Made by a program: the position numbers and the translations under genes. The notes under the pieces were generated by a model that had not been told where the DNA came from, ran no database searches, and saw nothing but the letters and a program-made list of their open reading frames with translations. Positions 9,645 through 64,000 of a stretch of 64,000 nt of DNA are shown here, one piece after another; within the stretch, counting starts at the first letter, position 1, and every line of letters begins with the position of its first letter. Location: assembly GCA_964521295.1 (NCBI GenBank), contig CAZFRF010000001.1, positions 334,146 to 398,145 of the forward strand, written 5' to 3'. Origin of the DNA: an uncultured Gammaproteobacteria bacterium. GTDB taxonomy: Bacteria; Patescibacteriota; Microgenomatia; Levybacterales; UBA12049.

Positions 9645-10193
9645 TTAAAAGCCAGAAGAGTTAAGAAGAATTTGTTTAGTTTTTAATTTTCTTTCCAATA
9701 AATTTTCGATGAATTCATGCGTACTAAGTTGCAAAGCCTGTCTTTGAGAATAAAAACCAAGTAAACTTAAAAGCTGTATTTCAAAATCTTTCACAATCTC
9801 AATTAAATTATTCTTTTCTTTACTGATTAATTTTAAAGTCTTATCTAATAAATCAAATATTTCATTATTTTGCTGATTCTCAGGACAAAGTCCATCTACT
9901 AGCTCACACACGTGATACGCAAAGCCAATTTTTTCTAAATCGTTTTTTAAGTCATAGAAGTTCTCTAAAGACTCAACCTCAGTTAAGGTTGGCATTGATT
10001 TACCCCTATATAAACTAAAAACACAATAATTTAAAAGTTCTATATGAGGAGATCTTTTACTAGTAATTCTTCTAACTCCCGTCGCTTTGATTTTTATTTT
10101 TCCTTCTGTTTTTGAATAAACTGTAATAAGTCTATCTGCTTCCCCAAAATTCTTCCGCTTAATAACAATTCCTTGTAGTTTGAATGATTTCAT
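9645..10193 (-). CDS. recO: DNA repair protein RecO (short form)
   Basis: N-terminal OB-fold signature QGIVIKRKNFGEADRLITVYSKTEGKI. Only 182 aa, so the C-terminal zinc-finger region appears to be absent. Confidence 0.55.
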   Translation of the reverse strand: MKSFKLQGIVIKRKNFGEADRLITVYSKTEGKIKIKATGVRRITSKRSPHIELLNYCVFSLYRGKSMPTLTEVESLENFYDLKNDLEKIGFAYHVCELVDGLCPENQQNNEIFDLLDKTLKLISKEKNNLIEIVKDFEIQLLSLLGFYSQRQALQLSTHEFIENLLERKLKTKQILLNSSGF

Positions 10194-12208
10194 TATCTGA
10201 GCTTTAAGTTAAGAGTCTTATCAGAAGCAAGTGGAAATATTTCTAGTTTCCTGCCAGAAGTATTGATTAAATAGTTACTTGAATTTGTTCCAGGTTGTTT
10301 TTGGATCATTAAAGGAAGAACTGAATTATTTGCTAACTTAAATGGCAAGGTATAAGTAAGTGTATATTTAGCTACGCCTTGAGGTCTAATTGTTAAAAAG
10401 CCCTCAAAGACAGTCTTACCAAGCTCATCATAGGTTTTTAATTTAACCTCTGAACCTTGACTACTAACTAACTTACTACCTTTTGGAACATATATCCTAA
10501 CCCAATCCCTTAAAATAGCATTTAGACACAAATTGCCTCTTTCAAGATTGCAATCAGATGGTGGATATGGATTCTTATAATTTACCGTAACAGTCTTTGT
10601 AACTAAGCCATCTGAGCCAACTGAATAGTCTTGGGTAACCTCTTGCGAAACAAACATATTAGATTTAGCTCCACCAAGATTAGCTTCATTAATGTGTAAA
10701 TAATCTCCATCAAATGGCATTATTCGACCTGCAGCGTTCAAACCTTCTAATCCTTCCTGGGCTTGAGCGTTATATGCATAGAAAAGAATATGTTTCTCAG
10801 AAATTTGAGTTAACATTGTTTGAAAAAGTGGACCCCAATATAACTTTGGAGAAGATGAGAAGGCTTTTTGCATAATTGCATACATTAACTCTCCGATAAT
10901 TCCTTTTCTATTATTCCTAACAACCTGACCTGGTCTATCTGCATATTCTTCTAATTCATAAATTACCTGAGGACAATCGCATCTCGGATCAGTTTTAGTA
11001 GTAAAATTAATCCCTCCAGCTTGCATATCTCCCAAAATATTCATAGCTGCAACTAAAGCTTGCGTATCAACCGCAAAGATTCCATCTACTTTGGTATACG
11101 CACTAGATTTCTTATACATCTTAGTAAACTCATCCATTGAGACTTTATAATCCGGAGAGATATTAACGTCTCTTAAGTTAAGCTTACTAACCTCAAGATA
11201 TTTTTGGAAAACTTCTGGAGCAGCGCTTTTTCCAGAGATTGTATCGTCGAGAGCATAAATATCTGAAGAATTATCAACCTTAATAACTCCTGAATTTAGT
11301 CTAAAGATAGAATAGGCTGTGATAAAACCACCAGTTGGTCTCAATTCTTTATCATTTTGGAAAATAATTAAATATCTTTTTTCATCAGGCTCTCCCAACA
11401 TTGTTGGCAAGACCTTAATTAATGGCTTTGCATTAGAAATTAATGTAACACTTTGGTCGGTCAAAGTTTTGAGATTTGTTAAGCCGCTTTGTACTTTCTT
11501 ACCAGCGCCAATTGCAGGATAATGCTTAGGATTAACTTGATCTATTTCTTCTCTAACTAAATCTAGCTTCGCAGAGATCTCATCAATTTTGGGAGTAATT
11601 TTACTCATTGTCTTAACTGCTGTTTCAATACGCTGCTGGGCAGTCCCACCAACAAAACTTCCTTGACCCTTAAGGCCTAGTAAATCTGCATAAGGCTTGA
11701 TTGAATCTACTAAAATTACTGCAGCGTCTAAACCATGAAAGCCTGCATTTATTAAATGATCTGCATCGCTATAGTATCCATGAGCAATTGGAATAAAATT
11801 TAAATAACCCATTGCATGTAAGCTTTTTTGGGTAACTAATAAGGCTGCTTTAGTTTTTGCAAGTTCTTCAGATGCTGCACCAATATTTTGCTGTTTTAAC
11901 ACTTGAGCCGTAATCTGAGCCTGGGCATAAGTAATTTTTACCGTGGAATACAAAGCTCTTGCCTGAATAACAACTAGACCTACAAATAAAATTAAAAATA
12001 CTACAAAAATACCTAGACCTACTTGAAATTTACGATTTTTTAATACTTTTTTAAATCTAGAATTAGCAAAGCGACCTGATCTTCTTGGAGAACTTTCGGT
12101 AGACTGGTTTAAACCTGAAGTCACGTTAGTAGAGCTTGTTTCCTTGGGAGTCTCAAATTGAATCTTAGACAATCCGTCCATAACAATTATCATATCGGAT
12201 ATTATCAA
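10193..12208 (-). CDS. DUF4012-like membrane-anchored protein (671 aa)
   Basis: N-terminal TM helix and a large extracytoplasmic domain. The motif FQNDKELRPTGGFITAYSI resembles the DUF4012 RPTGGFIGS core. Confidence 0.5.
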   Translation of the reverse strand: MIISDMIIVMDGLSKIQFETPKETSSTNVTSGLNQSTESSPRRSGRFANSRFKKVLKNRKFQVGLGIFVVFLILFVGLVVIQARALYSTVKITYAQAQITAQVLKQQNIGAASEELAKTKAALLVTQKSLHAMGYLNFIPIAHGYYSDADHLINAGFHGLDAAVILVDSIKPYADLLGLKGQGSFVGGTAQQRIETAVKTMSKITPKIDEISAKLDLVREEIDQVNPKHYPAIGAGKKVQSGLTNLKTLTDQSVTLISNAKPLIKVLPTMLGEPDEKRYLIIFQNDKELRPTGGFITAYSIFRLNSGVIKVDNSSDIYALDDTISGKSAAPEVFQKYLEVSKLNLRDVNISPDYKVSMDEFTKMYKKSSAYTKVDGIFAVDTQALVAAMNILGDMQAGGINFTTKTDPRCDCPQVIYELEEYADRPGQVVRNNRKGIIGELMYAIMQKAFSSSPKLYWGPLFQTMLTQISEKHILFYAYNAQAQEGLEGLNAAGRIMPFDGDYLHINEANLGGAKSNMFVSQEVTQDYSVGSDGLVTKTVTVNYKNPYPPSDCNLERGNLCLNAILRDWVRIYVPKGSKLVSSQGSEVKLKTYDELGKTVFEGFLTIRPQGVAKYTLTYTLPFKLANNSVLPLMIQKQPGTNSSNYLINTSGRKLEIFPLASDKTLNLKLR

Positions 12209-12222
12209 TCTATGTCAACCTA

Positions 12223-12864
12223 TTACTTAAGTTTAATATGAAGTCTTGCTTGATTAATATTTGTAGGATATTTTAGTTGAGTTTTAACTTGTACTTGATA
12301 ATCCTTAGCCCCCTGATCATAAACTAAAGCTTTAGAAGACGTATATCCAGATTGTCCACTAATTGACACCTCACTGTTCCAAACTGGATGCTTATCTGTT
12401 TTATTATATAGTCTTACCCAAACCATTTGATTTGCGGTTGGAACGCTTACTGAAACTTCAAAAAATATATCTTTAATATTTCCATAATTTGCAAAATCTA
12501 CATTTGCTTCTAAACCAGCGACATCTGCCCATTCATCAGCAATGCTTGATCCAGACCCAAAAGCAACAAAATACTCCTTAGCACTCAAATCCTTAACAAC
12601 AGGAGTTATTACTTGAGTCGGAGTAATTGTCTGAGTTAAACTAGGCTCTTGAGTTGGGGTTGGCAAAGAAACACCATTTTTACTACTAATCTGCTCAGGC
12701 CTAAAAATAAATTGATAAATAACTACAAAATTTAAAAAGGTAACTAATATTAAGAAAAGAATTATCCAGAAAAAACGCTTTGCTCTTTTTTCATCTTTCA
12801 AGATCTTTTCTTCATCGACTTGAATCTCTTCTCTTAAGTCTTGGAGTTGTTCATTGGTAACCAT
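12223..12864 (-). CDS. membrane-anchored protein with a Pro/Thr/Gln-rich linker (213 aa)
   Basis: TM helix, then PTPTQEPSLTQTITPTQVITP, then a beta-rich domain. Confidence 0.5.
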   Translation of the reverse strand: MVTNEQLQDLREEIQVDEEKILKDEKRAKRFFWIILFLILVTFLNFVVIYQFIFRPEQISSKNGVSLPTPTQEPSLTQTITPTQVITPVVKDLSAKEYFVAFGSGSSIADEWADVAGLEANVDFANYGNIKDIFFEVSVSVPTANQMVWVRLYNKTDKHPVWNSEVSISGQSGYTSSKALVYDQGAKDYQVQVKTQLKYPTNINQARLHIKLK

Positions 12865-12902
12865 TAAGCCTAGTCTAGCTAGAACAAGAATAAAAGTAAA
12901 GT

Positions 12903-13568
12903 TTACAAAGCGCCTTTACCGGAGATCATGGTCCAAGGGGTTTTTAAAATAATCCACAAGTCGTAAATTATTGATCTTTTTCTAACATAGGTTGCATCCA
13001 TTTCTATTCTTTTATCAAAATTAATCTCAGATCTGCCAGAAACTTGCCAATAACCAGTTAAGCCAGGTTTTATTGAAAGCACAATCCTAACTGCTTTTTG
13101 AGTTTTGGGATATTTTTTTTGCTGCTCTCTTAATTCATCTGGATAATATGCTCTTGGACCAACTAAACTCATGTCCCCTTTTAAGATATTAAAAAGTTGG
13201 GGAACCTCATCTATGGAGTGCTTTCTAATAAAGTGACCAACCCTGGTTATTCTTGGGTCATCTTTTAATTTATAACTACTCTTTTTATATTCATTATAAA
13301 GCTTGGCATATTCGGGATTATTTCTTAAAAGAGTATGAGCATTAATGATCATACTTCTAAACTTATACATTTTAAATAAATTTCCACCCTTACCCACTCT
13401 TTGTGGCGTATCTGCAAGAACTGGACCTCTACTATCAAGCTTGATTGCAATTGCAGTAATAAGAATTATAGGAGAAAAAATGATTAAAATTGTAAGAGCA
13501 AAAACGATATCCATTAGCCTTTTTACAATTTCATAAATTCCGCTTTTTTTAATCTCTGTAACTGGCAT
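12903..13568 (-). CDS. polyprenyl-phosphate hexose-1-phosphate transferase (WbaP/WcaJ C-terminal-domain family sugar transferase)
   Basis: 221 aa with one TM helix. Carries PVLADTPQRVGKGGNLFKMYKFRSM and DEVPQLFNILKGDMSLVGPRA, the bacterial sugar transferase signature. Confidence 0.85.
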   Translation of the reverse strand: MPVTEIKKSGIYEIVKRLMDIVFALTILIIFSPIILITAIAIKLDSRGPVLADTPQRVGKGGNLFKMYKFRSMIINAHTLLRNNPEYAKLYNEYKKSSYKLKDDPRITRVGHFIRKHSIDEVPQLFNILKGDMSLVGPRAYYPDELREQQKKYPKTQKAVRIVLSIKPGLTGYWQVSGRSEINFDKRIEMDATYVRKRSIIYDLWIILKTPWTMISGKGAL

Positions 13569-13571
13569 AAA

Positions 13572-14660
13572 TTAGGCTAAATGCTCTCTCTCCGTTCCTT
13601 CAAGTTCCTGAACGAACTTTTTAATTTTTGGGACAGAGTCTTTGGGGCAAATTAAAACAACATCTTTTGTATTAACAACAATCATTTCCTTCAAATCAAT
13701 TCCCACAACTAATTGATTAGTGAAATTAAAAGCTAAACTATCAATACTGTCTTCGAGCGCAACTTCTCCTTTAGTAACATTTTCAGTACTACTTTCTGAC
13801 AATGCTTCCTTTAGCGCTTCCCATGCTCCAATATCACTCCAGCCCAAATCTGCAGAAATTACTAAGCCTTGTTTTGGATCCATTTTTTCAAGCACAGCAT
13901 TATCAAAAGTAATTTTTTCAATTGTTGGATACACTTCTCTTAAAACACGATCGTAATCAGATGTACCATAAGCTTGTTGGATTGCCTCTAGTTTTCCATT
14001 TAACTCAGCTGGAGCAAAAGTTTGAAAAAGATTCCACAAAAACCTTGGAGTAGTTACGAAATATCCTAAATTCCAAGCATGATGACCATCTTCAACCCAT
14101 TTCTCGGCTGTTGATAAATGAGGTCTATATAAAAAGCTTTTAAAAGAAGAGACTGAAAGTTGTCCAATTTTTTCAACTTCTTCACCGAATTCAATATAAC
14201 CTAAATTTTGATTTGCAAATCTTGGCTTTTGACCAACAAAAACAATTCTCTCTCCATTTTGCTTAATAATTTGCTCTGCCCCTCTTAAAGCCTCCTGAAA
14301 AAGAGCTTCTTCTCTAACCAAATGATCACTTCCCCACAAAATTACAATTGGTTCATCTGGATTTGTTTTATGAAAAATTGAAGTAACTAAACCAACAGCA
14401 GGCCCCACATCTCTCATCTCTGGCTCAACTAGAACATTTTCAACAGGGAGTTCTGGAAGTTGAGTTCTTACTTGATCAACATATGTTTCACCTGTAGCGA
14501 TATAAATATCTTTCCACTCAAAAAGAGGAAAAAGCTTGCCAACTGCAATCTGAAGCATTGTTCTATCGCCAATAATTTTCTCAAACTGCTTTGGGGTATT
14601 TTTTCTAGAAAGGGGCCAAAGCCTTGACCCAACTCCTCCTGCAAAAATAACTACTTTCAT
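13572..14660 (-). CDS. mannose-1-phosphate guanylyltransferase (GDP-mannose pyrophosphorylase, no PMI domain)
   Basis: N-terminus MKVVIFAGGVGSRLWPLSR. Confidence 0.8.
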   Translation of the reverse strand: MKVVIFAGGVGSRLWPLSRKNTPKQFEKIIGDRTMLQIAVGKLFPLFEWKDIYIATGETYVDQVRTQLPELPVENVLVEPEMRDVGPAVGLVTSIFHKTNPDEPIVILWGSDHLVREEALFQEALRGAEQIIKQNGERIVFVGQKPRFANQNLGYIEFGEEVEKIGQLSVSSFKSFLYRPHLSTAEKWVEDGHHAWNLGYFVTTPRFLWNLFQTFAPAELNGKLEAIQQAYGTSDYDRVLREVYPTIEKITFDNAVLEKMDPKQGLVISADLGWSDIGAWEALKEALSESSTENVTKGEVALEDSIDSLAFNFTNQLVVGIDLKEMIVVNTKDVVLICPKDSVPKIKKFVQELEGTEREHLA

Positions 14661-15736
14661 AATTTAATATTATATTCCTTTATTTCTCTTAACAAAAGTT
14701 TTTTAAAATTAGTAAACGAAAACCTTAGGGCATTCTGTCTACATAATTTATAATTATATCTCCTAGCATTGAAATTTTCCAATACCGTTTTTAAGACTTT
14801 AACTTTTTGTTTAGTAAAAAATTCACCTGTTTTTCCCGGAATAACAATATCTAATGCACCGCCACCCTTAAAAGCTATAACTGGCTTACCAAAATATTGA
14901 GCTTCAGTCATTACAATTCCAAAATCTTCTAGTCCTGGGAAAATTAAGGCTTTTGAGTTCTTATAATAACCGTATAGCTCTCCGTCTGAAATATTTTTAA
15001 CAAATTTAACAGTTGGTCCAGCAATTTTTTTCAACTTTTTCTCCTGCCCTCCTGTACCTACAACAACTAAAGGTAAGTTAAGACTTGTACAGGCTCTAAC
15101 CGCTAAATCAACGCGTTTATAATAAACAAGTCTTGAAACGACTAAAAAATAATCTTTGTCCTTGGGTTTTTGAATCTTAACTTTTGATATGTCTAAAGGT
15201 GGGAAAATTAATCTTGCTTCTTTTTTATAGTATTTTTTAATTCTCCTATTAACTTCGGTTGAAATCCCAATGAGCTTATCGGGTTTTTTAGCCCAATATT
15301 TATCAATAATCCTTAAATACCAAACAATTGGCAAACTAATTTTTCTTAACAAATTATTTTTAAAGTATAATTTATAACCGCTCCACAAATATCTTGTTGG
15401 GGTAAGAATATAAGATATATGCCTTGCTGGCTTTTCAACTCTAATTACCTTCGCATATTCACTAGTTACAGAGATAACTAAATCATATTTAGAAAAATCT
15501 AAAAAATAAAACGCAAGTGGCATAAGCGGTGCAAGTAATTCATGAAAATTTGAGGCATAAGGAATATCTTGTAAAAACGAGGTTTTAACCCTAAATCCCT
15601 TAGCCCATTTAGCTTTTTTAGGATTATATACTGACGTAAACAAATGAGCCTTAGGAAATATTTTATGCAAAGAAATTAAAACTCTTTCCGCCCCACCCCA
15701 TTTATTTACTCTGTCGTAAACAAGTGCAACTTTCAT
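14657..15736 (-). CDS. glycosyltransferase family 4
   Basis: C-terminal EDFGIVMTEAQYFGKPVIAF (GT4 E-x7-E region). ATGA overlap with the upstream gene. Confidence 0.7.
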   Translation of the reverse strand: MKVALVYDRVNKWGGAERVLISLHKIFPKAHLFTSVYNPKKAKWAKGFRVKTSFLQDIPYASNFHELLAPLMPLAFYFLDFSKYDLVISVTSEYAKVIRVEKPARHISYILTPTRYLWSGYKLYFKNNLLRKISLPIVWYLRIIDKYWAKKPDKLIGISTEVNRRIKKYYKKEARLIFPPLDISKVKIQKPKDKDYFLVVSRLVYYKRVDLAVRACTSLNLPLVVVGTGGQEKKLKKIAGPTVKFVKNISDGELYGYYKNSKALIFPGLEDFGIVMTEAQYFGKPVIAFKGGGALDIVIPGKTGEFFTKQKVKVLKTVLENFNARRYNYKLCRQNALRFSFTNFKKLLLREIKEYNIKL

Positions 15737-15751: not shown

Positions 15752-16855
15752 TTATTTCGAAGAAATATTATTGTAAATATTTAGTGTTTGAGTAGCCATT
15801 TTTTTCCAGGAATATTCTTTAGCTACTTCAATTTCTAATTCTTTAATTTTATCCAGACTTGCTTTATCAAGTTCTAAAAGCTGATTAATTTTACTTGTCA
15901 TATCATCTGGATTGTTTGGATCGAAATAAACTGCACTATCTTTACATATTTCTCTGTGAACTGCAATATCTGAAACTGCCAAAGGAACCCCTAGTCCCAT
16001 AGCCTCAACAGATGTCAGAGAAAATCCCTCCATTAATGATGGGACTACTACCATCTTCGCGTTTGCATACAAACTAAAAAGCTGATTATCATTCGGACTT
16101 TCAATAAAAATAATCCTATCTTTAATTTTCAGTTGATCAATCTCTTTTTCAATCCGGGTAAAAAAATAATCCTTTTTACCAATTAACATTAATTTTATTT
16201 GTTTATCTTTTAAATTTTTAAAACTAAACAATAAGTTTTCGATATTTTTATGAGGATAAAAATTACCAACACGCAAAAGATATTCTCCATATTTATTTTC
16301 CAAAACTTCAGGTTTTTTCTCAAAACCACCTTCATAAGTTATTTCAATTTTTTCAGTCTTAACTTTTTTATAAACATCTAAGATATCATTCTTAACCGCA
16401 TTAGAAGGAACAATAATTTTTGAAGCTTTACTTATCGCATTAGCAAGAACTACATTGTATGCCAATCTTTTTGACATATAAATTGGATATGGAAGAGTTG
16501 ACGCTTGACCTGTATTGAACTTATTGATAATTAAATCATGAACTGTAACCACAAACTTTCTTCTATATAGATATGGAACCGAAAAATAAGGAAAATGAAT
16601 TAAATCTAATTTAAATGAATTTAAAAAGAAAGCAAATTTTGTTTGCTCTGCAATCGAATGCCATTTAACATTTGTCTTAACGATTTTCCAATTTTCAGAT
16701 GAAAATAATGTGCTTAATTCTGCAAAATCTTCTTTTAATACAAATAATACATATTTATTTGTATTATCTAAATTATAAAGATTGTTTACTAAGTTCTGCG
16801 TGTATCTTCCAACTCCTGTTTGACGCCATAACCTACAATCAATTCCAATTAACAT
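15752..16855 (-). CDS. glycosyltransferase family 4
   Basis: EGFSLTSVEAMGLGVPLAVSD GT4 motif. Starts MLIGIDCR. Confidence 0.7.
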   Translation of the reverse strand: MLIGIDCRLWRQTGVGRYTQNLVNNLYNLDNTNKYVLFVLKEDFAELSTLFSSENWKIVKTNVKWHSIAEQTKFAFFLNSFKLDLIHFPYFSVPYLYRRKFVVTVHDLIINKFNTGQASTLPYPIYMSKRLAYNVVLANAISKASKIIVPSNAVKNDILDVYKKVKTEKIEITYEGGFEKKPEVLENKYGEYLLRVGNFYPHKNIENLLFSFKNLKDKQIKLMLIGKKDYFFTRIEKEIDQLKIKDRIIFIESPNDNQLFSLYANAKMVVVPSLMEGFSLTSVEAMGLGVPLAVSDIAVHREICKDSAVYFDPNNPDDMTSKINQLLELDKASLDKIKELEIEVAKEYSWKKMATQTLNIYNNISSK

Positions 16856-16916: not shown

Positions 16917-17267
16917 ATGAAGAACTATAAAGATATTGACGAATATATAAATTCATTTCCCAAAGATATACAAAGCAAATTAACCGCTATTAGAATAGCA
17001 ATTCACAAAAGCGCACCAAATGCTACTGAAAAAATAAGTTATGGAATGCCAACTTTTTATCAAAATGGCAACCTTGTCCATTTTGCTGCATTTAAAAATC
17101 ATCTTAGTCTTTTCCCAGCACCTTCTGGCGTTAATATGTTTAGAGACAAACTTAAAAAATATCAAACTAGCAAAGGGACTATTCAATTTAAATATTCAGA
17201 TGAAATTCCTTATGATTTGATAGAGCAAATTGTAAAATTCAGAGTTACAGAAAACACTAAAAAATGA
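16917..17267 (+). CDS. DUF1801 (YdhG-like) domain protein
   Basis: DIDEYINSFPKDIQSKLTAIRIAIHKSAPNATEKISYGMPTF is typical of DUF1801. Confidence 0.6.
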   Translation: MKNYKDIDEYINSFPKDIQSKLTAIRIAIHKSAPNATEKISYGMPTFYQNGNLVHFAAFKNHLSLFPAPSGVNMFRDKLKKYQTSKGTIQFKYSDEIPYDLIEQIVKFRVTENTKK

Positions 17268-17278
17268 TAAACTAAATC

Positions 17279-17755
17279 ATGATTCAAAAGATTACTCCAT
17301 GCTTATGGTTTGACAACAACTGCGAAGAAGCTATAAGTTTTTATACCTCCATCTTTCCTAATTCTAAAATTATAAGTATGCAAAAATACCCTCAAAATGT
17401 TGATGATCCCCACATGAAAGGCATGGAAGACAAAATTATAACATCTATTTTTGAACTTGATGGGCAAAAATTTATGGCACTTGATGGAGGACCAATTTTT
17501 AAATTTAATGAAGCAATTTCTTTCGAAGTAGAATGTGAGAATCAAGAAGAAGTTGATTATTATTGGGAAAAACTATCAGCTGTACCTGAATCAGAGCAAT
17601 GTGGATGGCTAAAAGATAAGTACGGAGTCTCTTGGCAAATTGTTCCTAAACAACTTGGCGAACTTATTAGTAAGGATACAACAGGAAAAGTAATGCAAGC
17701 AATGTTAGAAATGAAAAAAATTGTAATTAAAGATCTAGAAAATGCTGCTAGCTAA
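17279..17755 (+). CDS. VOC-family protein (PhnB / 3-demethylubiquinone-9 3-methyltransferase-like domain)
   Basis: N-terminus KITPCLWFDNNCEEAISFYTSIFPNSKI is the characteristic start of this domain family. Confidence 0.65.
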   Translation: MIQKITPCLWFDNNCEEAISFYTSIFPNSKIISMQKYPQNVDDPHMKGMEDKIITSIFELDGQKFMALDGGPIFKFNEAISFEVECENQEEVDYYWEKLSAVPESEQCGWLKDKYGVSWQIVPKQLGELISKDTTGKVMQAMLEMKKIVIKDLENAAS

Positions 17756-27883: not shown

Positions 27884-27884
27884 A

Positions 27885-38123: not shown

Positions 38124-38124
38124 T

Positions 38125-40540: not shown

Positions 40541-40541
40541 A

Positions 40542-55696: not shown

Positions 55697-55708
55697 AAAT
55701 TGATAATA

Positions 55709-57349
55709 CTAATTAATCTTTCTTTTTACAAATAGCTTAATAAAAAAAGCTAATAGTACAACTCCTAAGGCAAATATGGAAAGGGCATCAGCAAGGAGCC
55801 TTAACTTAGTTTCTCCAAAAACAACCCTAACTAAATATTCACCTTTGGACAGATTAAAAAGCATAATTCCTCTATGTTCTGGATTCTGAAACTCTACATC
55901 TACAATTTGACCGTTGGCATAAATTTTCCAACCCGGAAAAAATAAAGTATTTTCCTTTATTTGCGCATCTTGCAAAACATCTATTTTATATTCATGTAAA
56001 TTAGCGGTTCGCCTAATCTCTTGAATATTAGCTTCACCCTCAATAACTTCTACATGCGCTGCTGGCCTTTTCTCCATAAACCTGACCGACCAAATAGGAG
56101 CACTTTCTCCTGTATCAGTTGTACTGTTATATATTCCAGTATAAAATTCTGCATTCTTATACAAATAACCCTTTGGGGTAAAATAAGGAATACTAACTAC
56201 TAGTACTACCGTAATAACAATTGCGCTAATTAATTTATGATTAATTTTTTTAGCTAAAACTTCTACTACATAGACAGTTAAAACCGCTGTTGTAAAAACA
56301 ATTAAAGCAATAAATCTCCAAGGGAACTGAAAATTTTGCAAAAGAATTATTTTATCCCAAATAAAATTTGAATAGGGTAACATTATAAAAATTGAAAGAA
56401 GAGTAAAGAGAATAAGCGTTGCAATCATAAGTAACTTAATTCGATCTTTTCTAAATACATATCCAGCAATAAATGATCCCAGCAAAACAAACCACTGAAA
56501 TATTCCAAGCTGTACTGTAAAAGCACCTGATCCACCGAAATCCCATGGTCCATAAATTAACCTAGGTATGTTTACAAAATTATTTATATATCCACCTTTA
56601 GTTACGATGTTTCTTAAAGTAAATTTTCCTTCTAAAAGGGCTGGCACCCAAAAGAAAGCAGATAGCATAAAACCTAGAGAAAAACCGACAATAAATTTAA
56701 TTAAATATTCTTTCTTGTTTTTTAAATTAATACTTAAGATTAATCCATATAAAAATATAAATGGAATACTTATTAAACTGATTGCATTATGAGCTAAGAT
56801 CAAAAGTGCTAAAGACAAAGAAATAAAAATATAATTATTAATTGTTTGTTTTTTAGAAAGCTTATAAATAAACAGCAAAGTAAGTGGAATGAATGCAAAT
56901 GCCAAATTCTCGCCTATGTCCCCCCTAACATACAATTCAACAAAGCGATAAGGCGCATAAGTATATAAAAATGCTCCTATAAGAGAAGAATTTCTTGATG
57001 AAAATTGAGATAACCATAGATACATAAATATAAATGAAAGAACCATCCCCATTCCCAAAACTATTTTTACTGAATCAACTAAAGAGAAACCTACGAAATG
57101 AAAAGCTGATGCAATATATGAAGGTAAAGGATATAAAAATTGTAAAACTGGGTGTCCATAGCCCCAATTTAAATTCTCAGCCCACCTAGGGATTATTACC
57201 CCATCGTTAAGTGCAGAATAAAAATTAGCAATTCTGGCCACATGATCTTGACCATCATGGGTAATTGGTAATCCTTGATGAAATAAAGAAATTACAGGAA
57301 TAAACAATAAGATTAAAAATAGTACGCTAAATAATTTTTTTGATATCAT
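55709..57349 (-). CDS. YfhO-like GT-C-fold membrane glycosyltransferase (546 aa)
   Basis: N-terminal HDGQDHVARIANFYSALNDGVIIPRWAENLNWGYGHPVLQFLYPLPSY, about 11 TM helices, a periplasmic beta domain and a C-terminal TM helix. Confidence 0.5.
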   Translation of the reverse strand: MISKKLFSVLFLILLFIPVISLFHQGLPITHDGQDHVARIANFYSALNDGVIIPRWAENLNWGYGHPVLQFLYPLPSYIASAFHFVGFSLVDSVKIVLGMGMVLSFIFMYLWLSQFSSRNSSLIGAFLYTYAPYRFVELYVRGDIGENLAFAFIPLTLLFIYKLSKKQTINNYIFISLSLALLILAHNAISLISIPFIFLYGLILSINLKNKKEYLIKFIVGFSLGFMLSAFFWVPALLEGKFTLRNIVTKGGYINNFVNIPRLIYGPWDFGGSGAFTVQLGIFQWFVLLGSFIAGYVFRKDRIKLLMIATLILFTLLSIFIMLPYSNFIWDKIILLQNFQFPWRFIALIVFTTAVLTVYVVEVLAKKINHKLISAIVITVVLVVSIPYFTPKGYLYKNAEFYTGIYNSTTDTGESAPIWSVRFMEKRPAAHVEVIEGEANIQEIRRTANLHEYKIDVLQDAQIKENTLFFPGWKIYANGQIVDVEFQNPEHRGIMLFNLSKGEYLVRVVFGETKLRLLADALSIFALGVVLLAFFIKLFVKRKIN

Positions 57350-58878
57350 AACTCTCTTTTCTGAACCACAAAACCACTAGGTAAAGTTTTTGTCCACTCC
57401 ACCTTTCCATCTTTAATCACTGTTTCTAACCATCCTTTATAACTCCATGGTTTTGAAGGATCAGGCTCCATTAATAGATAAAAGGTTCCTTTTTTTTCTT
57501 TATAAGGTATATAATCGTATTTTGCTTTTCCATACCACCATAATAAATAATCGTATGGATAAGTATATACTGGAGGACTAAATACCAAGAGACCAAACGG
57601 TTTTTTATTGGCATCTTTGTATATAAAATCTAAGACATCAATTTTACCTCTTATCTTAGCTATTCCACCATAATCAGGGTAATCATAAATTGTTGTTGCA
57701 ACTGCACTGTATATTCCAATTGGAAAATTTATAAAAATATATAAAAGTGCAATTAAAAAAATCTTAGTATTGTTCTTAAATGAACTATAAACTATGTAAC
57801 AAGAAAGAAGTAAATAGGCAACATTTAAATGCTGTAAGTAAATTCCGTAAACCGTATTCCTAAGTGGAGAAAAAACTAAATAAGTAACTGGGATCAAAAA
57901 TAATAGAAAGCTAAAGAAATATTTTAGATATTTTACTTTCTCTTTTCTTATGTAATAAACAGAAACAATAACAATAAATAAAAACACTAATAGATATAAT
58001 GACTGCAAAGGAAAAGTACTACTAAAACTATGTATAAATGAATTAAAGTGATCTATGAAAAAATTTGTTTCATTCACGTTATGATTAGTAGCTTTATGTT
58101 TAAAAATATAGGTAATAATTCCACGAAGACCTAGAAAATCATGTCTTACTTCAAATAAAAACATTGGGAGATATCCGAACACATAACCTACAAATAGAAA
58201 AATGTAGTTTTTAATGTGTTTCTTAAAAAGGAAAATTGAATAAATTAATAAAGTAAGAGATAAAGGAACTGCAATACCAAGCTCAAAGTTATATATAAAT
58301 CCTGAAAAAAATGCTGCTAAAAATGTAAATAATAATGATTTATTCTTCGAAAACAAATAAGTAAAATAAAATGTCAGAAGTATAAAAAATGTTGGTGGAT
58401 TTGGACTCCAGATAAACCTTGATTGAGCAGTGAAAATTGGCGCAATACTAATAAGTAACGAGAGTAATAAGCCTATCCACCGGTTAAACATCTTTAATCC
58501 TAAATAATAACCAAAAAGAATAGAAATTATTCCAAAGCCAAACATTAAAAATATTCCACCCTGAGGGTTTCCATTAAACAAAATAAAAACAATACTCAGC
58601 ATGTAGTAATATAATGGCCCATGAAAAACACCTGAGATTCCTGCGTCCCCCGCTCCAATTTCAGTTCCTATTAAGATAAATTTATGATCTACAACAATTT
58701 TCTTGGCTGCAAGCATTTCCCTTCCTTGATCAAAGAGAAATAAAGGGTTTTGATTAAGCAATTCAACGCAACGAGGAAATATTGCTAAAAAAACAACAGT
58801 AAATGCTATTAATATAAATAAAATATTAGACTTTTTTTTAGCAAGTATTAAAATCCAATTATAAAAACTGTTAATCAT
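57346..58878 (-). CDS. polytopic GT-C-fold (ArnT/PMT-like) glycosyltransferase
   Basis: FDQGREMLAAKKIV...GPLYYY first-loop motif. About 12 TM helices. Confidence 0.5.
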   Translation of the reverse strand: MINSFYNWILILAKKKSNILFILIAFTVVFLAIFPRCVELLNQNPLFLFDQGREMLAAKKIVVDHKFILIGTEIGAGDAGISGVFHGPLYYYMLSIVFILFNGNPQGGIFLMFGFGIISILFGYYLGLKMFNRWIGLLLSLLISIAPIFTAQSRFIWSPNPPTFFILLTFYFTYLFSKNKSLLFTFLAAFFSGFIYNFELGIAVPLSLTLLIYSIFLFKKHIKNYIFLFVGYVFGYLPMFLFEVRHDFLGLRGIITYIFKHKATNHNVNETNFFIDHFNSFIHSFSSTFPLQSLYLLVFLFIVIVSVYYIRKEKVKYLKYFFSFLLFLIPVTYLVFSPLRNTVYGIYLQHLNVAYLLLSCYIVYSSFKNNTKIFLIALLYIFINFPIGIYSAVATTIYDYPDYGGIAKIRGKIDVLDFIYKDANKKPFGLLVFSPPVYTYPYDYLLWWYGKAKYDYIPYKEKKGTFYLLMEPDPSKPWSYKGWLETVIKDGKVEWTKTLPSGFVVQKREL

Positions 58879-60131
58879 TTTTCTTTACCGGTTAAATAAT
58901 AAAAGATATAAATTTCAGGTACCCCCTGTCTCCATTCGGGTATAATTCCTTCTTTAACGATCTTCTGCGCATCAATAGTTTTAAATTTTAATCCGTTTAG
59001 CTCCTTATAGTTAATATAATTAGCTATATTTGTATAAGCGATTGTAAATAACGAAACGATAATTACAGCCTTTATCAATCGACTTCTAAGGCTAAAGATA
59101 GTATACAAAATAAATGCCAAAATAAACAAAACAATAAATCTATTGATTGCAAAATAATAGTCAGTTAGCTCTCCACTGTAGGTGGTAAAAACAAACCAAG
59201 GAATAATAAACCACAGAGCTACTAAATAGCAGAATGCAATCTGATTTCTGGTTTTTGATTTATAGAGTTGTAAAAAATAAAAAACTGGAATAAGCAAGAA
59301 CTTAATAGGAACTAACTTATCCCAAACAAGATAGGGGTTAAATTGTATCAATGCATCACTTGCAAGTTGCAATAATCTTCTTAAATGAAAACCATGATAA
59401 TTCTGACTTAAATAATTTCCCAAAGCATTACCAGATTTGTCTACAAACTGATGTACCAAGTTTGGGATTAGCCAAACAAAAAAGAATGGAAATGAAATTA
59501 GTATGTATTTCAACATTTCTTTAGTCCGAGGAAAAAAAGGTAAGCTTAAAAGAATAATAATTGGGAAAAAGATTGCTGTAAAATGAAGATTAAACGCTAT
59601 TCCTGTTAAAAATGCTAAAGGAATTACTTTTTTAGTCTCTCCTTGAATTACTCTATATAAAAAGTAAAAGATGAGCAAAGAGATTGATGGAATAAAAGCA
59701 ACTGGCCATTGTACTCGATCAAATTGAATTGCTGCAGTTGTAAACGTATTCAAAAATACTGCAAAAATTGCAACTTTTTCTGAAAACAGTTTTTTTGTAA
59801 CAAAATAAATTACCCAAAAAGTAAAAATGCTCGTTACTCCAGCCAAAATTGGAGATGCAATGGGATTTAAATTTGTTAAGAAATAAAATACAGCAACTAA
59901 ATAATAATATGCAGGTCCAATAAATATTCCACTATTGCCTTTTGCAACCATTCCTAGAAGTGGATACTCATGATTAACTAAAATCACCTTAGCTGCCCAA
60001 GCATTATCTACCTGATCATATCCAAAACCATTTTTTATGTCTAATTGATAAAAACGTAAAAACAATTCAAAGAGGAAAATTATTAAAACCAATAATAAAA
60101 GCTTATTTTTAAATATTTTTTTTAATTTCAT
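58875..60131 (-). CDS. polytopic GT-C-fold (ArnT/PMT-like) glycosyltransferase
   Basis: YDQVDNAWAAKVIL...GPAYYY first-loop motif. Paralog of 57346..58878. Confidence 0.5.
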   Translation of the reverse strand: MKLKKIFKNKLLLLVLIIFLFELFLRFYQLDIKNGFGYDQVDNAWAAKVILVNHEYPLLGMVAKGNSGIFIGPAYYYLVAVFYFLTNLNPIASPILAGVTSIFTFWVIYFVTKKLFSEKVAIFAVFLNTFTTAAIQFDRVQWPVAFIPSISLLIFYFLYRVIQGETKKVIPLAFLTGIAFNLHFTAIFFPIIILLSLPFFPRTKEMLKYILISFPFFFVWLIPNLVHQFVDKSGNALGNYLSQNYHGFHLRRLLQLASDALIQFNPYLVWDKLVPIKFLLIPVFYFLQLYKSKTRNQIAFCYLVALWFIIPWFVFTTYSGELTDYYFAINRFIVLFILAFILYTIFSLRSRLIKAVIIVSLFTIAYTNIANYINYKELNGLKFKTIDAQKIVKEGIIPEWRQGVPEIYIFYYLTGKEK

Positions 60132-61777
60132 TTTTCAACTATAACAATAGCTGGACTTCCATCCAGATTCTTAATCACTTTAGTTGCAAATTTTGGAGCA
60201 ATTTCTCGAGAAGTTGCGACAATCATTGTGTCTCTTAATTTATAATCTTGTTCCCAATCTATGTTTCTAAAAACAAATTTATCAAATTGATGATGATAAT
60301 CAAATTGACCACTACTATTTACACCAATCTTTTGATATTCCGCTGGTGGATACTTCAAGTAAAAGAGGAAGAACATGTAGGATTTATCCATGGGCTCCCT
60401 ATCGGAAATAATAATTTTGTCATATTTGTCATACTTAGCTACCACTTCGGCTACAGCCTCTTTATAACCATATTGCCAATCTTGGCTAGTATAATAATTT
60501 AACTGTACAAAATATTGATTAAGATAATATGTGAAATTGAATATCGCAAGACAAAGGAAAATTGAAATTGCAAAATATTTTATTCGTTTATACTGGAGAA
60601 TAAAATATAAACTACTTACAAGTCCTACGGCTGACAATATTTGCCAAGTTGGTAAAAAGTTTAACGTTCTTACCGCATGCGGTACTCCGGTGGTAATTGA
60701 TGCAGGAACAGGTGCTAGTAAAAACCATCCCAAAATAGTCAATTTTGCTTTTTTGTCTAAATCAGAAAATAGTAATTTATATATACCTATTAAAATAAAT
60801 GGTAGCTCAAAAAGATAAATAATTCCGACATTGGGCGCATGATGTCTTAAAATATCTCCTGAAGTAAAAAGCCAATTCAAATCAAAATGAGAGATATATC
60901 CATATACAATTGTCTTAGCATAAACAACCCTTCTATTATCTAAAACTAAACCTAAATAATCATTGTTTGCCTTATCTCGCTCTAATTTTTGAACATTATT
61001 TTTAAGAATTTCAGTTTGATAATTAAAAATACTTGTTCCTTTGACTCTTAATAACGCTGATTTGTCTGTTAATATATAAAATATCATTGGCGAAATTACA
61101 ACGAAACCAACAACAACTGCTAAGATGAGATATTTCTTTTTTAAAGCAAATAGGGCTTTCCTAAAAACAAAAATTAATAATAACGCAAGCAACGGAGTAA
61201 AAACTTTGTCGCTTTGATATGTGTAGATACTAAATGCGCCCATTGTTGCAGAAAGCCCCAATAACAATGGCTTTTTCAAACCTTTTACAAAAAAGAGGGC
61301 CATTAAAATATTAAATGCATCTCCGACATTTGATTCAAAACCAATTCTTGAAAATTGTAAGGACCACGGTGAGATAGCAAACAGCAAAGATGAAATCAAA
61401 GCAAGTTGATCTTTATATTTATATTTTTCAAACAATTCTCTGATTAGGAAAAACAAGACAATAGTTGCAATTACTCCAAATACAGCCGAAGGGAGCCTAA
61501 CCGCAAAAGTATTCAAACCAAATACAGCAACGCTAGGAATTGCTAAATATGCATACATTGCAGGTTTATAGTCATTAAACGATCTTAGGACTACTGGAAA
61601 CAGCTTTCCATACTCGTCTCTACCTGTATGCAAAAGCGAATAGGCATCATAACCCAATGCTACCTCATCCCAATCAGGTGAAGGTGGGATGTTTCCAAGC
61701 TGCCACAATCTTAAAATAACTGACAGTACAATTATGCCAATAAAAAGTAACCAAGTAATTTTTTTATTTATATTCAT
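60128..61777 (-). CDS. glycosyltransferase family 39/83-like (ArnT/PMT_2) GT-C membrane glycosyltransferase
   Basis: PDWDEVALGYDAYSLL...NDYKPAMYAYL matches the ArnT/PMT DE...KPPLxYW first-loop pattern. Confidence 0.6.
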   Translation of the reverse strand: MNINKKITWLLFIGIIVLSVILRLWQLGNIPPSPDWDEVALGYDAYSLLHTGRDEYGKLFPVVLRSFNDYKPAMYAYLAIPSVAVFGLNTFAVRLPSAVFGVIATIVLFFLIRELFEKYKYKDQLALISSLLFAISPWSLQFSRIGFESNVGDAFNILMALFFVKGLKKPLLLGLSATMGAFSIYTYQSDKVFTPLLALLLIFVFRKALFALKKKYLILAVVVGFVVISPMIFYILTDKSALLRVKGTSIFNYQTEILKNNVQKLERDKANNDYLGLVLDNRRVVYAKTIVYGYISHFDLNWLFTSGDILRHHAPNVGIIYLFELPFILIGIYKLLFSDLDKKAKLTILGWFLLAPVPASITTGVPHAVRTLNFLPTWQILSAVGLVSSLYFILQYKRIKYFAISIFLCLAIFNFTYYLNQYFVQLNYYTSQDWQYGYKEAVAEVVAKYDKYDKIIISDREPMDKSYMFFLFYLKYPPAEYQKIGVNSSGQFDYHHQFDKFVFRNIDWEQDYKLRDTMIVATSREIAPKFATKVIKNLDGSPAIVIVEK

Positions 61778-63413
61778 ATGCTACTAACGCAGTTTTACCA
61801 TTTAATAAATTAAAGGTTTTTTTAATAACAATATTTTCTGGCAAAGTGTAAGGAGTATTTATATATAAAACATTTTTCTTACTAGACAAACTATAATCAA
61901 ATTTGCCAGGAAAAAGATATTTTCCTACTCTTTTTACTGTTACGAAACCAAAAGGATCTCTCTCTATTTCTGAGTTATTTCTAAAATATTCAGGGGACAC
62001 TTTATCATAGAACAAATGATACGCGTAAGGCCTACCTAATGCAGTTGTTATGACGATATTATCATATTTTGCTTCAACTGAACTTGCGTACGCCAGAGAC
62101 TCTTTATATCCATATTGCCATTCCCCTGAATAATCAATTGCATAATGCTTACCTAAAGAATGATAGAAATATATAAAGTTTCCTATTAAAAGAATTAAAA
62201 GTACTGACATAATTAAATTCTGTCGCTTTTTAAATAGATTCAGAAAGTTAACAAAACCATAAGCAACAAGAATTTGAAATGTCGGCAGCGTTGTTTCTAT
62301 CCTTAATGCATGCGGTGTTTCTCTTGCCAATCCTGCAGGTATAATTCCAAACAAAAGCCAGACAGGAATAAGCCACCACCCTCCTTCTCTTTTTTTAAAT
62401 AGTAAAAAAGCACCCCCAACAAAAAAGACTATATCCCAAATATATAACTGTCCTACATCCTGAACAGAAAATTTAGGATTACCATCTCCCCTAATAAACA
62501 AGAAGTTTGGAGATAAATTATCAAAATAACGTTTGAAAAATTCTAAGGTATATAAAACCCTACGATTATGTATTACCTTAGACCAATCTGCATTATTGTC
62601 ATTAGCAACTTGTTGGTTTGCTGAAGTTATTACTGTTGAATCAGAGAAAATATTTACTTCTTTATACCTAAGCCCAGCTTGCGGAGAAAGCAGAAACGGA
62701 AAAAGCGGTAGAAAAACTACCAAACCTAAAACCAGTGCTAAAATCATCTGGGTTTTAACTTTTATTAATCTTTTCCAATAAAATAAACTTAAAATTACTA
62801 CTAAAAACGGTGAAACAATCCTTGCGGTATTAAATACATACATTGAGGCAGCAAAAAAGAAAGCCGAAACCAACAAATACCATTTTTTATTCCCTATTCC
62901 CGCTAGGAAAGCATAAACACCAGTTACTATAAAAAAAGTGGCAATATTTGCTTCAAAAGCAGCTCTTGAGAGCATAATATGCCAAGGGGAAATTGCTAAA
63001 AATAAACTTGTAAACAAAGCATATTTTTCTTTATTTTCTGAATTTGCAAATAATCTTTTAACCAAAAAATATGATATTAATACAGTTAATACTCCGAAAA
63101 ATGCCGAAGGGAATCTGGTAGCAAATTCTGTTAATCCAAAAATCTTTACGGGAATAATTGCTAAATATGCATAAAGTGGTGGTTTAAAATCTCCAAATGA
63201 CTCAAGATAATCAAAAGGTAGTACCCTACCGAACTCATCTTTTGCATCTATACCTAATGCGTATGCATTATATCCCCAGGCTGTTTCGTCCCAAGTAAGA
63301 CTAGGTGGGTTAGTTGAAATCTGATTAAATCTTAAAAATGTAGCAATAAGTAGGATTAAAAGAAGTAAAATAATATTTTTATATTTTCTAATCATTTTTC
63401 TACAAGAAACCAC
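61764..63413 (-). CDS. glycosyltransferase family 39/83-like (ArnT/PMT_2) GT-C membrane glycosyltransferase; tandem paralog of 60128..61777
   Basis: LTWDETAWGYNAYALG...GDFKPPLYAYL. Same length (549 aa) and same motif order as the neighbour. Confidence 0.6.
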   Translation of the reverse strand: MVSCRKMIRKYKNIILLLLILLIATFLRFNQISTNPPSLTWDETAWGYNAYALGIDAKDEFGRVLPFDYLESFGDFKPPLYAYLAIIPVKIFGLTEFATRFPSAFFGVLTVLISYFLVKRLFANSENKEKYALFTSLFLAISPWHIMLSRAAFEANIATFFIVTGVYAFLAGIGNKKWYLLVSAFFFAASMYVFNTARIVSPFLVVILSLFYWKRLIKVKTQMILALVLGLVVFLPLFPFLLSPQAGLRYKEVNIFSDSTVITSANQQVANDNNADWSKVIHNRRVLYTLEFFKRYFDNLSPNFLFIRGDGNPKFSVQDVGQLYIWDIVFFVGGAFLLFKKREGGWWLIPVWLLFGIIPAGLARETPHALRIETTLPTFQILVAYGFVNFLNLFKKRQNLIMSVLLILLIGNFIYFYHSLGKHYAIDYSGEWQYGYKESLAYASSVEAKYDNIVITTALGRPYAYHLFYDKVSPEYFRNNSEIERDPFGFVTVKRVGKYLFPGKFDYSLSSKKNVLYINTPYTLPENIVIKKTFNLLNGKTALVAYEYK

Positions 63414-63976
63414 ATATTTAGATAAGCCTCAAAATAACCCTTTTTCATTTTTGACCTACTAAAACCACTACTTTCAATTATATCTAATATCTTGTTCTGG
63501 GTGTAATGGCTTTTATGATCGTGTATTTCTTCTGAACTAATAAGTCCAAGACGTGCCATGTGATGCAAAAGCTTATCTGACCAAGGAGAAGGAGTTGTTA
63601 TTATCAATCTTCCCTTTGGTTTTAACACTCTATTTATTTCTTTTATAGCTGATATTAGTTTTTCTTTCTCTATGTGTTCAAAAACAGCAAGCATAGTAAC
63701 TACTTCAAAAGAATTATCCTTAAAGGGAAGCTTTTGTTTTGCAATATCTACTTTTTGCAGATTAATGCCTTTTATTTGAGTGTTAACAGCAGGATCTATA
63801 CCAAATTTATTATTAAATTTTGTAGATGTTAAGAAATGAGGATAAAAACCACAACCAATATCCAAAATGCTTCCATCTCTAAATGAATTTGGAATAAATT
63901 CATTTGCCTTTTGAGCTCGTTTTTCTGACAAAAACTTTTCTAATAAACCTGAACCACGGGTGAAATTAGTAGTCAT
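63392..63976 (-). CDS. class I SAM-dependent methyltransferase
   Basis: ILDIGCGFYPHF motif I. Motif II VVTMLAVFEH. Confidence 0.65.
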   Translation of the reverse strand: MTTNFTRGSGLLEKFLSEKRAQKANEFIPNSFRDGSILDIGCGFYPHFLTSTKFNNKFGIDPAVNTQIKGINLQKVDIAKQKLPFKDNSFEVVTMLAVFEHIEKEKLISAIKEINRVLKPKGRLIITTPSPWSDKLLHHMARLGLISSEEIHDHKSHYTQNKILDIIESSGFSRSKMKKGYFEAYLNMWFLVEK

Positions 63977-64000
63977 AAAATTAATTTGTGAATCTATATT

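Follow-up and report, generated by a model that had tools for sequence, protein, structure and literature searches.

A conserved single-strand glycan locus with thirteen predicted GT-C-fold domains in a Levybacteria genome, probably serving cell-envelope glycan assembly

The 64,000-nucleotide stretch analysed here (the window; contig CAZFRF010000001.1 of assembly GCA_964521295.1, positions 334,146 to 398,145) was confirmed by sequence analysis to hold about 46 predicted sugar-polymer genes on one strand over at least 54 kb. These genes are best explained as the principal locus for cell-envelope glycan assembly in a Levybacterium, a monoderm-type bacterium belonging to the Candidate Phyla Radiation (CPR), in which a cytoplasmic lipid-linked pathway would be combined with enzymes working on the outer face of the membrane. 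We give this reading a probability of roughly 0.6. Observed were the genes that the locus contains, the folds of GT-C and WaaL type and a gene order conserved across relatives. An earlier annotation made from the DNA letters (first-pass annotation) had called the genome possibly CPR, in agreement with the relatives of its glycyl-tRNA synthetase (GlyRS), which come from Candidatus Levyibacteriota and Microgenomates metagenome-assembled genomes (MAGs). Genes are designated below by their lower window coordinate.

Every open reading frame (ORF) of the window was scanned with Pfam and NCBIfam profiles. Between positions 10193 and 63976 there are 48 ORFs of 100 amino acids (aa) or more, and 46 of them lie on the minus strand, the only exceptions being the plus-strand ORFs 16917-17267 and 17279-17755. 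Coding density calculated from summed ORF length is about 99%, and five gaps exceed 40 nt, the largest being of 211 nt. The single-strand glycan locus of more than 50 kb that had been described from the DUF4012 gene to the window end, a two-gene plus-strand islet excepted, was thus recovered. The tight co-directional packing was also confirmed. The shared orientation, however, does not set the glycan genes apart, as it extends over the whole window, housekeeping genes included: from 1467 to 63976 the minus strand carries every ORF of 100 aa or more, with the exception of the islet (16917-17755) and of short alternative-frame ORFs nested inside minus-strand genes. Downstream in the direction of transcription are found recO, glyS, three genes without family and then mraZ-mraW-ftsI-murE. 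With housekeeping genes directly downstream, the glycan genes are part of the chromosome backbone, and no tRNA gene was found in the window, hence no sign of an island integration site. The GC content of the window is about 30% and its GC skew is negative throughout. All three stop codons (TGA, TAA and TAG) are in use and the ORFs are long, indicating that the standard genetic code applies. The locus, of at least 54 kb, takes up about 6% of the source contig (935,984 bp; genome of about 1 Mb), on which exact copies of the 32103, 20532 and 55709 proteins are recorded.

At least 12 GT-C-fold membrane glycosyltransferases (GTs) had been claimed among 13 listed polytopic ORFs. Hidden Markov model (HMM) searches, homology and fold confirmed that all 13 are predicted to carry a GT-C-fold domain, 12 of them intact. 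They are listed below with the E-values of the matching models; TM stands for transmembrane.

19061..20497, minus strand: GT-C, PMT_2/ArnT-like, in the conserved core (PMT_2 5e-9), with orthologues at the same position in relatives
20532..23708, minus strand: 1058-aa fusion of an N-terminal WaaL-like domain and a C-terminal GT-C of 32103 type (structure comparison)
27053..29057, minus strand: YfhO/AftD-like GT-C, broken near 27884 by a change of frame into the ORFs 27885-29057 and 27053-27883
32103..33827, minus strand: GT-C-fold enzyme of a family without Pfam or NCBIfam model (structure comparison; invariant QDEW after TM1)
34749..38195, minus strand: AftD/YfhO-like GT-C of 1148 aa with a large extracytoplasmic C-terminal region (GT-C_AftD 1e-9)
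45801..47120, minus strand: GT-C (PMT_2 9e-12), with an orthologue in the related locus L092
51298..52473, minus strand: GT-C (PMT_2 8e-10)
53414..55696, minus strand: 760-aa fusion of an N-terminal GT2 (5e-20) and a 13-TM GT-C-type domain (PMT_2 7e-5, below gathering score)
55709..57349, minus strand: GT-C, PTPS_related/YfhO-like (PTPS_related 2e-14)
57346..58878, minus strand: GT-C (PMT_2 1e-5, 26.1 bits, at gathering score)
58875..60131, minus strand: GT-C (PMT_2 1e-7)
60128..61777, minus strand: GT-C (PMT_2 5e-13), paralogue of 61764 with 36% identity
61764..63413, minus strand: GT-C (PMT_2 about 6e-13 to 7e-13; PMT 4e-10)

A hydropathy scan predicted 8-24 TM segments in each of these ORFs. 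Pfam models of GT-C type (PMT_2, PMT, GT-C_AftD, PTPS_related/YfhO) matched ten of the 13, eight above the gathering score, 57346 at it and 53414 below it, while 27885, 32103 and 20532 had no such match and were assigned by other evidence. The first-pass annotation would have been refuted if most of the polytopic ORFs had been transporters, but none of the 13 turned out to be one by HMM and fold evidence, the only transporter-like polytopic gene being the Wzx-type flippase 48991, which had been set apart from the start. For members without an HMM match, the GT-C fold was found by structure comparison and resembles those of Pmt4, Pmt1/2 and ArnT; in the AlphaFold2 models, both 32103 and 20532 fold into membrane bundles that are entirely helical. 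Sequence searches of the PDB with profiles of 32103 and 20532 and with 34749 and 61764 gave nothing meaningful, and only the fold comparison succeeded. In public data, relatives of the 32103 type number in the hundreds to thousands. A motif containing D or E, a candidate for the acidic catalytic motif of the first extracytoplasmic loop, follows TM1 in all 13 domains, for example QDEW (invariant) in 32103, GDDFTW (invariant) in 20532 and WDE in 60128 and 61764.

A recent tandem duplication as the origin of the array was ruled out: only 60128 and 61764 are clearly paralogous, the other domains being barely alignable; 57346 resembles 58875 and 61764 in pairwise comparison. This strong mutual divergence argues for a diverse GT-C tool-kit rather than a recent amplification. 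The AftD/YfhO-like 34749 matches GT-C_AftD over residues 303-594, scoring 37 bits where the gathering score is 26, and its orthologues in relatives are of 1102-1126 aa; its listed TTG start overlaps the upstream GT2 gene (38125-39150) by 71 nt, and the true start lies probably further downstream. The YfhO-like 55709 has 2223 homologues at E<1e-30, some of which are annotated at source as GT39 or YfhO family. The GT2 part of 53414 is a separate gene of 255-290 aa in most relatives and is fused only in L085. It may be noted that the fusion in 53414 could physically couple the synthesis of a lipid-sugar with the use of the sugar.

The one broken member is the gene covering 27885 and 27053. Both pieces resemble 34749, and the C-terminus of 27053 matches PgfM2 (3e-9) and YfhO. 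In four relatives the gene is unbroken (666-733 aa), and tblastn alignments of these intact relatives shift frame at an A-rich run near 27884. The gene is a pseudogene, unless the split stems from an error in the assembly. An alternative genetic code was ruled out as its cause, TGA, TAA and TAG being all stops and the ORFs long.

The Wzy/ligase-like domain that had been noticed corresponds to the N-terminal half of 20532, in which comparison of the AlphaFold2 model revealed a WaaL-type fold. As to sequence models, the window protein gives no match to Pfam Wzy_C at E<=0.05, whose matches to 32 out of 40 close homologues are weak (best 5e-5), and the match to the IctB model (5e-8) is far below the cut-off. 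The WaaL-like domain is highly conserved, with 54-89% identity. The C-terminal domain of the protein is a GT-C of 32103 type and has no sequence-model match.

Comparison with relatives confirmed that the gene order recurs, and the sequences indicate that the locus is a conserved trait of the lineage, not peculiar to one genome. For the core, 80 fetched Microgenomates loci were compared, and for the distal array the metagenome contigs L085-L097 and the locus L103. The order 20532-19061-GT4-(GT2)-GT4-GT4-ManC-phosphoglycosyl transferase-DUF4012-recO-glyS was found whole or largely so in most of the 80 loci, and the DUF4012 gene keeps its position beside recO in most of them. The remaining genes of the core and initiation end are as follows.

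10193..12208, minus strand: DUF4012 envelope protein with one TM segment (Pfam DUF4012 3e-21), last gene of the locus, adjoining recO
12223..12864, minus strand: single-TM protein of 213 aa whose linker is rich in Pro/Thr/Gln, no match in Pfam or NCBIfam
12903..13568, minus strand: short polyprenyl-phosphate phosphoglycosyl transferase, initiating enzyme (Bac_transf 1e-62)
13572..14660, minus strand: mannose-1-phosphate guanylyltransferase-like protein, GDP-mannose supply (NTP_transferase and ManC beta-helix; TIGR01479 3e-68, below cut-off)
14657..15736, minus strand: GT4 of the conserved core (Glycos_transf_1 1e-26; synteny)
15752..16855, minus strand: GT4 of the conserved core (Glycos_transf_1 5e-29; synteny)
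16917..17755, plus strand: two-gene islet, DUF1801 and 3-dmu-9_3-mt/glyoxalase-like, not a glycan gene pair
17877..19064, minus strand: GT4 of the conserved core (Glyco_trans_1_4 1e-17; Glyco_transf_4 8e-12)
23712..24323, minus strand: hexapeptide-repeat acyltransferase (Hexapep 2e-17)
24272..25366, minus strand: GT4 (Glycos_transf_1 3e-40)
25369..25893, minus strand: N-terminal half only of a GT4, 174 aa (Glyco_transf_4 2e-5)

Synteny of the middle region extends to L083, L084 and L099/L100, with decorating enzymes swapped, such as a carbamoyltransferase standing for the methyltransferases of the window in L099; in L104 unrelated genes (Trp repressor, NYN) correspond to them. The distal GT-C array recurs in L085-L097 and L103 with nearly the same order of orthologues, those of 57346 and 58875 being swapped in L103, and the arrays of relatives are accompanied by additional genes of YfhO, PMT_2 and PIG-V-like type. 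The 863-kb contig Ga0209514_10000010 carries array (382-404 kb) and core (345-368 kb) on one strand over at least 59 kb. In this relative, as noted for L103, the orthologue of 63392 (the last complete gene of the window) is preceded by two GT2 and one YfhO gene, and the locus of the window therefore very probably runs on past position 64000.

The variable middle (window 26000-50000) has a GC content of 0.245-0.30 compared with 0.33-0.35 in the conserved core and the housekeeping flank, which fits the usual serotype-like variable part of a glycan locus. The same unequal GC could also be expected from a mosaic of at least three independent glycan modules (core, variable middle and GT-C array) each with a product of its own (a wall polysaccharide, say, or a lipoglycan, or glycoproteins) and sharing an orientation only because nearly every gene of the region follows the direction of replication. 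The minus-strand position of the whole 64-kb window, with recO, glyS and mraZ-mraW-ftsI-murE, and its uniformly negative GC skew speak for such a mosaic, as does the variation of the middle between relatives such as L099 and L104. A single initiating transferase and a single Wzx were found, yet GtrB/GT-C pairs can work without them. We consider the mosaic quite improbable, since overlapping relatives preserve the order distal array-middle-core-DUF4012-recO, one contig doing so over at least 59 kb, and since the sole Wzx and the sole phosphoglycosyl transferase are 36 kb apart, which suggests that the modules depend on each other.

To return to envelope glycan assembly by one locus, the other genes it would draw on lie in the middle region and between the GT-Cs of the distal part (SAM, S-adenosylmethionine; SDR, short-chain dehydrogenase/reductase; NDP, nucleoside diphosphate).

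26105..27040, minus strand: ArnC/GtrB/PgfS-like polyprenyl-phosphate sugar synthase (GT2 3e-33; two C-terminal TM segments)
29075..29836, minus strand: SAM-dependent methyltransferase (Methyltransf_23 2e-22)
29833..30888, minus strand: GT2 (Glycos_transf_2 2e-21)
30952..31515, minus strand: cytidylyl/adenylyl-transferase related to glycerol-3-phosphate cytidylyltransferase (TagD) and RfaE (CTP_transf_like 3e-18; TIGR01518 5e-20, below cut-off)
31512..32099, minus strand: SAM-dependent methyltransferase (Methyltransf_11 2e-15)
33824..34423, minus strand: hexapeptide-repeat acyltransferase (Hexapep 5e-20)
34425..34748, minus strand: 107-aa four-TM protein directly after the AftD-like GT-C (TM prediction)
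38125..39150, minus strand: GT2 (Glycos_transf_2 8e-29)
39147..40031, minus strand: RmlD, dTDP-4-dehydrorhamnose reductase (TIGR01214, 265 bits, cut-off 224)
40010..40567, minus strand: RmlC, dTDP-4-dehydrorhamnose 3,5-epimerase (TIGR01221, 190 bits, cut-off 156)
40542..41573, minus strand: SDR-type NDP-sugar epimerase/dehydratase (Epimerase 6e-41; no equivalog reached)
41570..42376, minus strand: glucose-1-phosphate cytidylyltransferase-like nucleotidyltransferase (TIGR02623 1e-74, 251 bits, cut-off 300)
42430..43155, minus strand: SAM-dependent methyltransferase (Methyltransf_11 7e-18)
43157..44119, minus strand: SDR-type NDP-sugar 4,6-dehydratase/epimerase (Epimerase 9e-49)
44116..44952, minus strand: GT2 (Glycos_transf_2 6e-25)
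44952..45794, minus strand: SAM-dependent methyltransferase (Methyltransf_23 5e-20)
47113..48219, minus strand: GT4 (Glycos_transf_1 2e-33)
48216..48956, minus strand: GT2 (Glycos_transf_2 4e-22)
48991..50259, minus strand: Wzx-type flippase with 13 TM segments (Polysacc_synt 3e-11)
50252..51301, minus strand: GT4 (Glycos_transf_1 1e-31)
52440..53417, minus strand: UDP-glucose 4-epimerase GalE (TIGR01179, 419 bits, cut-off 262)
63392..63976, minus strand: SAM-dependent methyltransferase (Methyltransf_23 2e-13), last complete gene in the window

Most of the earlier inventory was recovered in these lists. Six GT4 (14657, 15752, 17877, 24272, 47113, 50252), six GT2 (26105, 29833, 38125, 44116, 48216 and the N-terminus of 53414), five methyltransferases (29075, 31512, 42430, 44952, 63392), two acetyltransferases of hexapeptide type (23712, 33824) and the Wzx-like flippase (48991, Polysacc_synt 3e-11) are all present. 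Two assignments stood in part. The supposed WbaP-type enzyme 12903 is indeed an initiating Bac_transf enzyme, but it is a short form of 221 aa with the catalytic domain only, aligning with no more than the C-terminal ~200 residues of the WbaP/WcaJ models, and not a full-length WbaP. Two DPM1/GtrB-type synthases had been announced; one is clearly of ArnC/GtrB type (26105; ArnC model 4e-54 and PgfS 1e-40 in NCBIfam, both below their own cut-offs), but the second is not clear.

The donors, acceptor, order of steps and product proposed here are deduced from gene families and folds. The locus would supply GDP-mannose (13572), UDP-Gal/Glc (GalE 52440), an NDP-6-deoxyhexose (41570, 43157, 40542, RmlC 40010 and RmlD 39147) and a CDP- or ADP-activated compound (30952); 41570 was rejected as RmlA, its best match being glucose-1-phosphate cytidylyltransferase. 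The phosphoglycosyl transferase 12903 would begin the glycan on polyprenyl phosphate, the six GT4 and four or five of the GT2 would lengthen it in the cytoplasm, and the five methyltransferases and two acetyltransferases would modify its sugars, before Wzx 48991 moves the lipid-linked glycan to the outer face. There, the WaaL-like domain of 20532 may transfer or polymerise it onto an acceptor. In parallel, 26105 and probably also the GT2 domain of 53414 would charge polyprenyl phosphate with single sugars, which would then be flipped, possibly by the 4-TM protein 34425. Finally, the 13 GT-C domains (12 intact) would use these lipid-sugars to branch and extend the glycan outside the cell, following the logic of mycobacterial arabinogalactan and lipoarabinomannan (LAM) assembly. 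Such a use of polyprenyl-phosphate sugars on the outer face has indirect support from the ArnC/GtrB-like synthase 26105.

Judged from families and folds, the gene set supports the extracytoplasmic glycan elaboration from lipid-linked donors that had been proposed, since all that it requires is there: a phosphoglycosyl transferase and a Wzx, a domain of WaaL type, an ArnC/GtrB-like synthase and numerous GT-Cs. A lipid-sugar pathway is favoured by the position of 26105 directly beside the YfhO-like GT-C 27885/27053 and by the neighbourhood of GT2, GalE and GT-C genes at 51298-57349. The candidate flippase 34425 is the only small 4-TM protein and gave no GtrA or SMR match even at E<=0.1; relatives hold a gene of 107-111 aa at its position, the copies of L083 and L099 being homologous and that of L084 not detectably so.

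Several points weigh against this assembly scheme. For CPR organisms, neither glycan nor biochemical data are known to us. The Pfam and NCBIfam scans of the window identified no separate Wzy, no Wzz/PCP chain-length regulator and no LCP-type wall ligase, and no GtrA-family flippase was detected by HMM in the window. One GT-C gene (27885/27053) is frameshifted. Housekeeping genes share the same strand across the window, so that a single operon is not demonstrated. Lastly, GT-Cs of PMT_2 and YfhO type also glycosylate proteins, and some or many of those found here may not act on a polymer.

This last point leads to another explanation, in which the locus mainly serves protein O-glycosylation. 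The WaaL-like domain of 20532 would, in the manner of PglL/PilO, hand the flipped oligosaccharide on to Ser/Thr of pilins, S-layer or other surface proteins, and the GT-Cs of PMT_2 and YfhO type would add single sugars from polyprenyl-phosphate to Ser/Thr-rich linkers, as do PMT in Actinobacteria and GtrB/PgtC2 and PgfS/PgfM1 in streptococci. PMT_2 matches in nine of the 13 GT-C domains are in line with it, and the protein O-mannosyltransferase model PMT also matches 61764 and, just below the gathering score, 19061. Wzy_C-family enzymes include O-oligosaccharyltransferases. In addition, 26105 resembles PgfS, the C-terminus of 27053 resembles PgfM2, and the GT2-GalE-GT-C neighbourhood parallels the pgfS-pgfE-pgfM operon (PMC12041528). 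A Pro/Thr-rich extracytoplasmic linker is found in the locus protein 12223. The Pgf scores are, however, far below the cut-offs (140 of 500 bits for 26105 against PgfS; 36 of 1500 bits for the C-terminus of 27053 against PgfM2), and the window contains no pilin, S-layer or adhesin gene. Moreover, 13 divergent GT-Cs and 12 cytoplasmic glycosyltransferases far exceed any known protein glycosylation system, and the AftD-like enzyme 34749 points to polymer work. We therefore hold protein O-glycosylation as the main function to be rather unlikely. As a separate observation, the linker of 12223 (SLPTPTQEPSLTQTITPTQVITP) is of a segment type that is O-glycosylated in other monoderm bacteria.

Envelope glycan assembly, our preferred reading, has its closest parallel in the mycobacterial arabinogalactan/LAM system (AftA-D, EmbA-C, Mpt, PimE). 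There, as proposed for the Levybacterium, a cytoplasmic stage with GT4, GT2 and GDP-mannose is followed by extension and branching of the glycan on the outer side of the membrane by many different GT-Cs, and 34749 has an AftD-type Pfam match. In contrast to mycobacteria, genes for decaprenyl-phospho-arabinose are absent from the window (no UbiA- or DprE-type match in the ORF scans), and the locus starts with a PglC-like phosphoglycosyl transferase and possesses a Wzx and a WaaL-like transferase. Mycobacterial GT-C genes are scattered in a 4.4-Mb genome, whereas those of the Levybacterium are in one contiguous locus of a genome of about 1 Mb. Only the fold is common to the proteins of the two systems, with 6-13% identity.

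Wzx/Wzy O-antigen or capsule loci with WaaL are alike in the phosphoglycosyl transferase, GT4, GT2, sugar-nucleotide genes, methyl- and acetyltransferases and Wzx, and in a variable, low-GC middle; both the initiating phosphoglycosyl transferase (12903) and the Wzx (48991) of this pathway are present. They differ in having a separate Wzy and Wzz, which were not found in the window, whereas the 13 GT-C domains of the Levybacterial locus are far outside their normal content. In typical Wzy/WaaL proteins the domain is neither fused to a GT-C nor highly conserved as in 20532. CPR cells are considered monoderm (PMC6744442), no lipid A-core acceptor being expected in such a cell, and no lipopolysaccharide genes were found in the window.

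Systems of Gtr type (GtrA/GtrB/GtrC; CsbB/GtcA/YfhO; streptococcal GtrB/PgtC2 and PgfS/PgfE/PgfM1/PgfM2, PMC12041528) share with the locus a synthase (26105) beside a YfhO-like GT-C and the GT2, GalE and GT-C neighbours at 51298-57349. In the window, by contrast, scores are far under the equivalog cut-offs, no GtrA-family flippase was detected and GT-Cs far outnumber synthases. The ArnT/PMT enzymes (GT83/GT39) are similar in the fold (Pmt4, Pmt1/2, ArnT), in the PMT_2 domain and in the DE-type motif after TM1 of 45801, 60128 and 61764. Unlike them, the Levybacterial proteins show no detected MIR domain and are mutually very divergent paralogues, and lipid A is lacking.

Each component family thus belongs to a known type of pathway. 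New are the scale, the conserved architecture and combination, the GT-C family without Pfam or NCBIfam model, and the WaaL-GT-C fusion. In agreement with the view that this is not a described pathway, the searchable literature on CPR, Patescibacteria, Microgenomates and Levybacteria contained no GT-C array, no WaaL-GT-C fusion and no such locus. It does report an enrichment of DUF4012 in CPR (PMC6744442) and several copies of "dolichol-phosphate mannosyltransferase" in some CPR genomes, Peregrinibacteria and Saccharibacteria (PMC4736985, PMC6031116).

Recurrence in relatives points to a large surface-glycan machinery in the Levybacteria lineage, and about 6% of the genome in a conserved locus relying on outer-face GT-Cs indicates that these organisms invest heavily in surface glycans. 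The genomes of CPR bacteria are minimal, and these bacteria depend on other cells or live attached to them. A wider proposal, possible but on balance doubtful, is that in Levybacteria, and more widely in Microgenomates, the dominant polymer of the envelope is made for the most part outside the cell, by a conserved assembly line of at least 13 GT-Cs, with the model-less 32103-type family and 20532 as a lineage-defining fusion. Such a system would be comparable to mycobacterial arabinogalactan/LAM but evolutionarily separate, would occupy 6-7% of a genome of less than 1 Mb, and its variable middle would give each strain a surface identity of its own, serving to attach to hosts or to evade phages. 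Targets for lectin or antibody probes, enrichment and heterologous enzymology are offered by the WaaL-GT-C fusion, the 32103-type family and the GtrB/GT-C pairs.

Some further observations were made along the locus and its flank. Relatives carry a GT2 of about 290 aa at the position of the plus-strand islet (16917-17755), which looks like a replacement or insertion within the locus. The counterpart of 25369 is a separate gene of 176-189 aa just upstream of a full GT4 in all relatives examined; possibly this lone Rossmann half, from the N-terminus of a GT4, serves as a partner subunit. Between glyS and mraZ (6264-8188, minus strand), three ORFs of 219, 157 and 235 aa have no Pfam match, the 157-aa one being membrane-anchored and detectable in most relatives. 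Many of the loci compared (L003-L082) are titled "uncultured Gammaproteobacteria" or "Pseudomonadales" and carry a Levybacteria-type GlyRS with the glycan core; since these GlyRS cluster with those of named Levybacteria, such MAG titles appear to be placeholder or wrong taxonomy.

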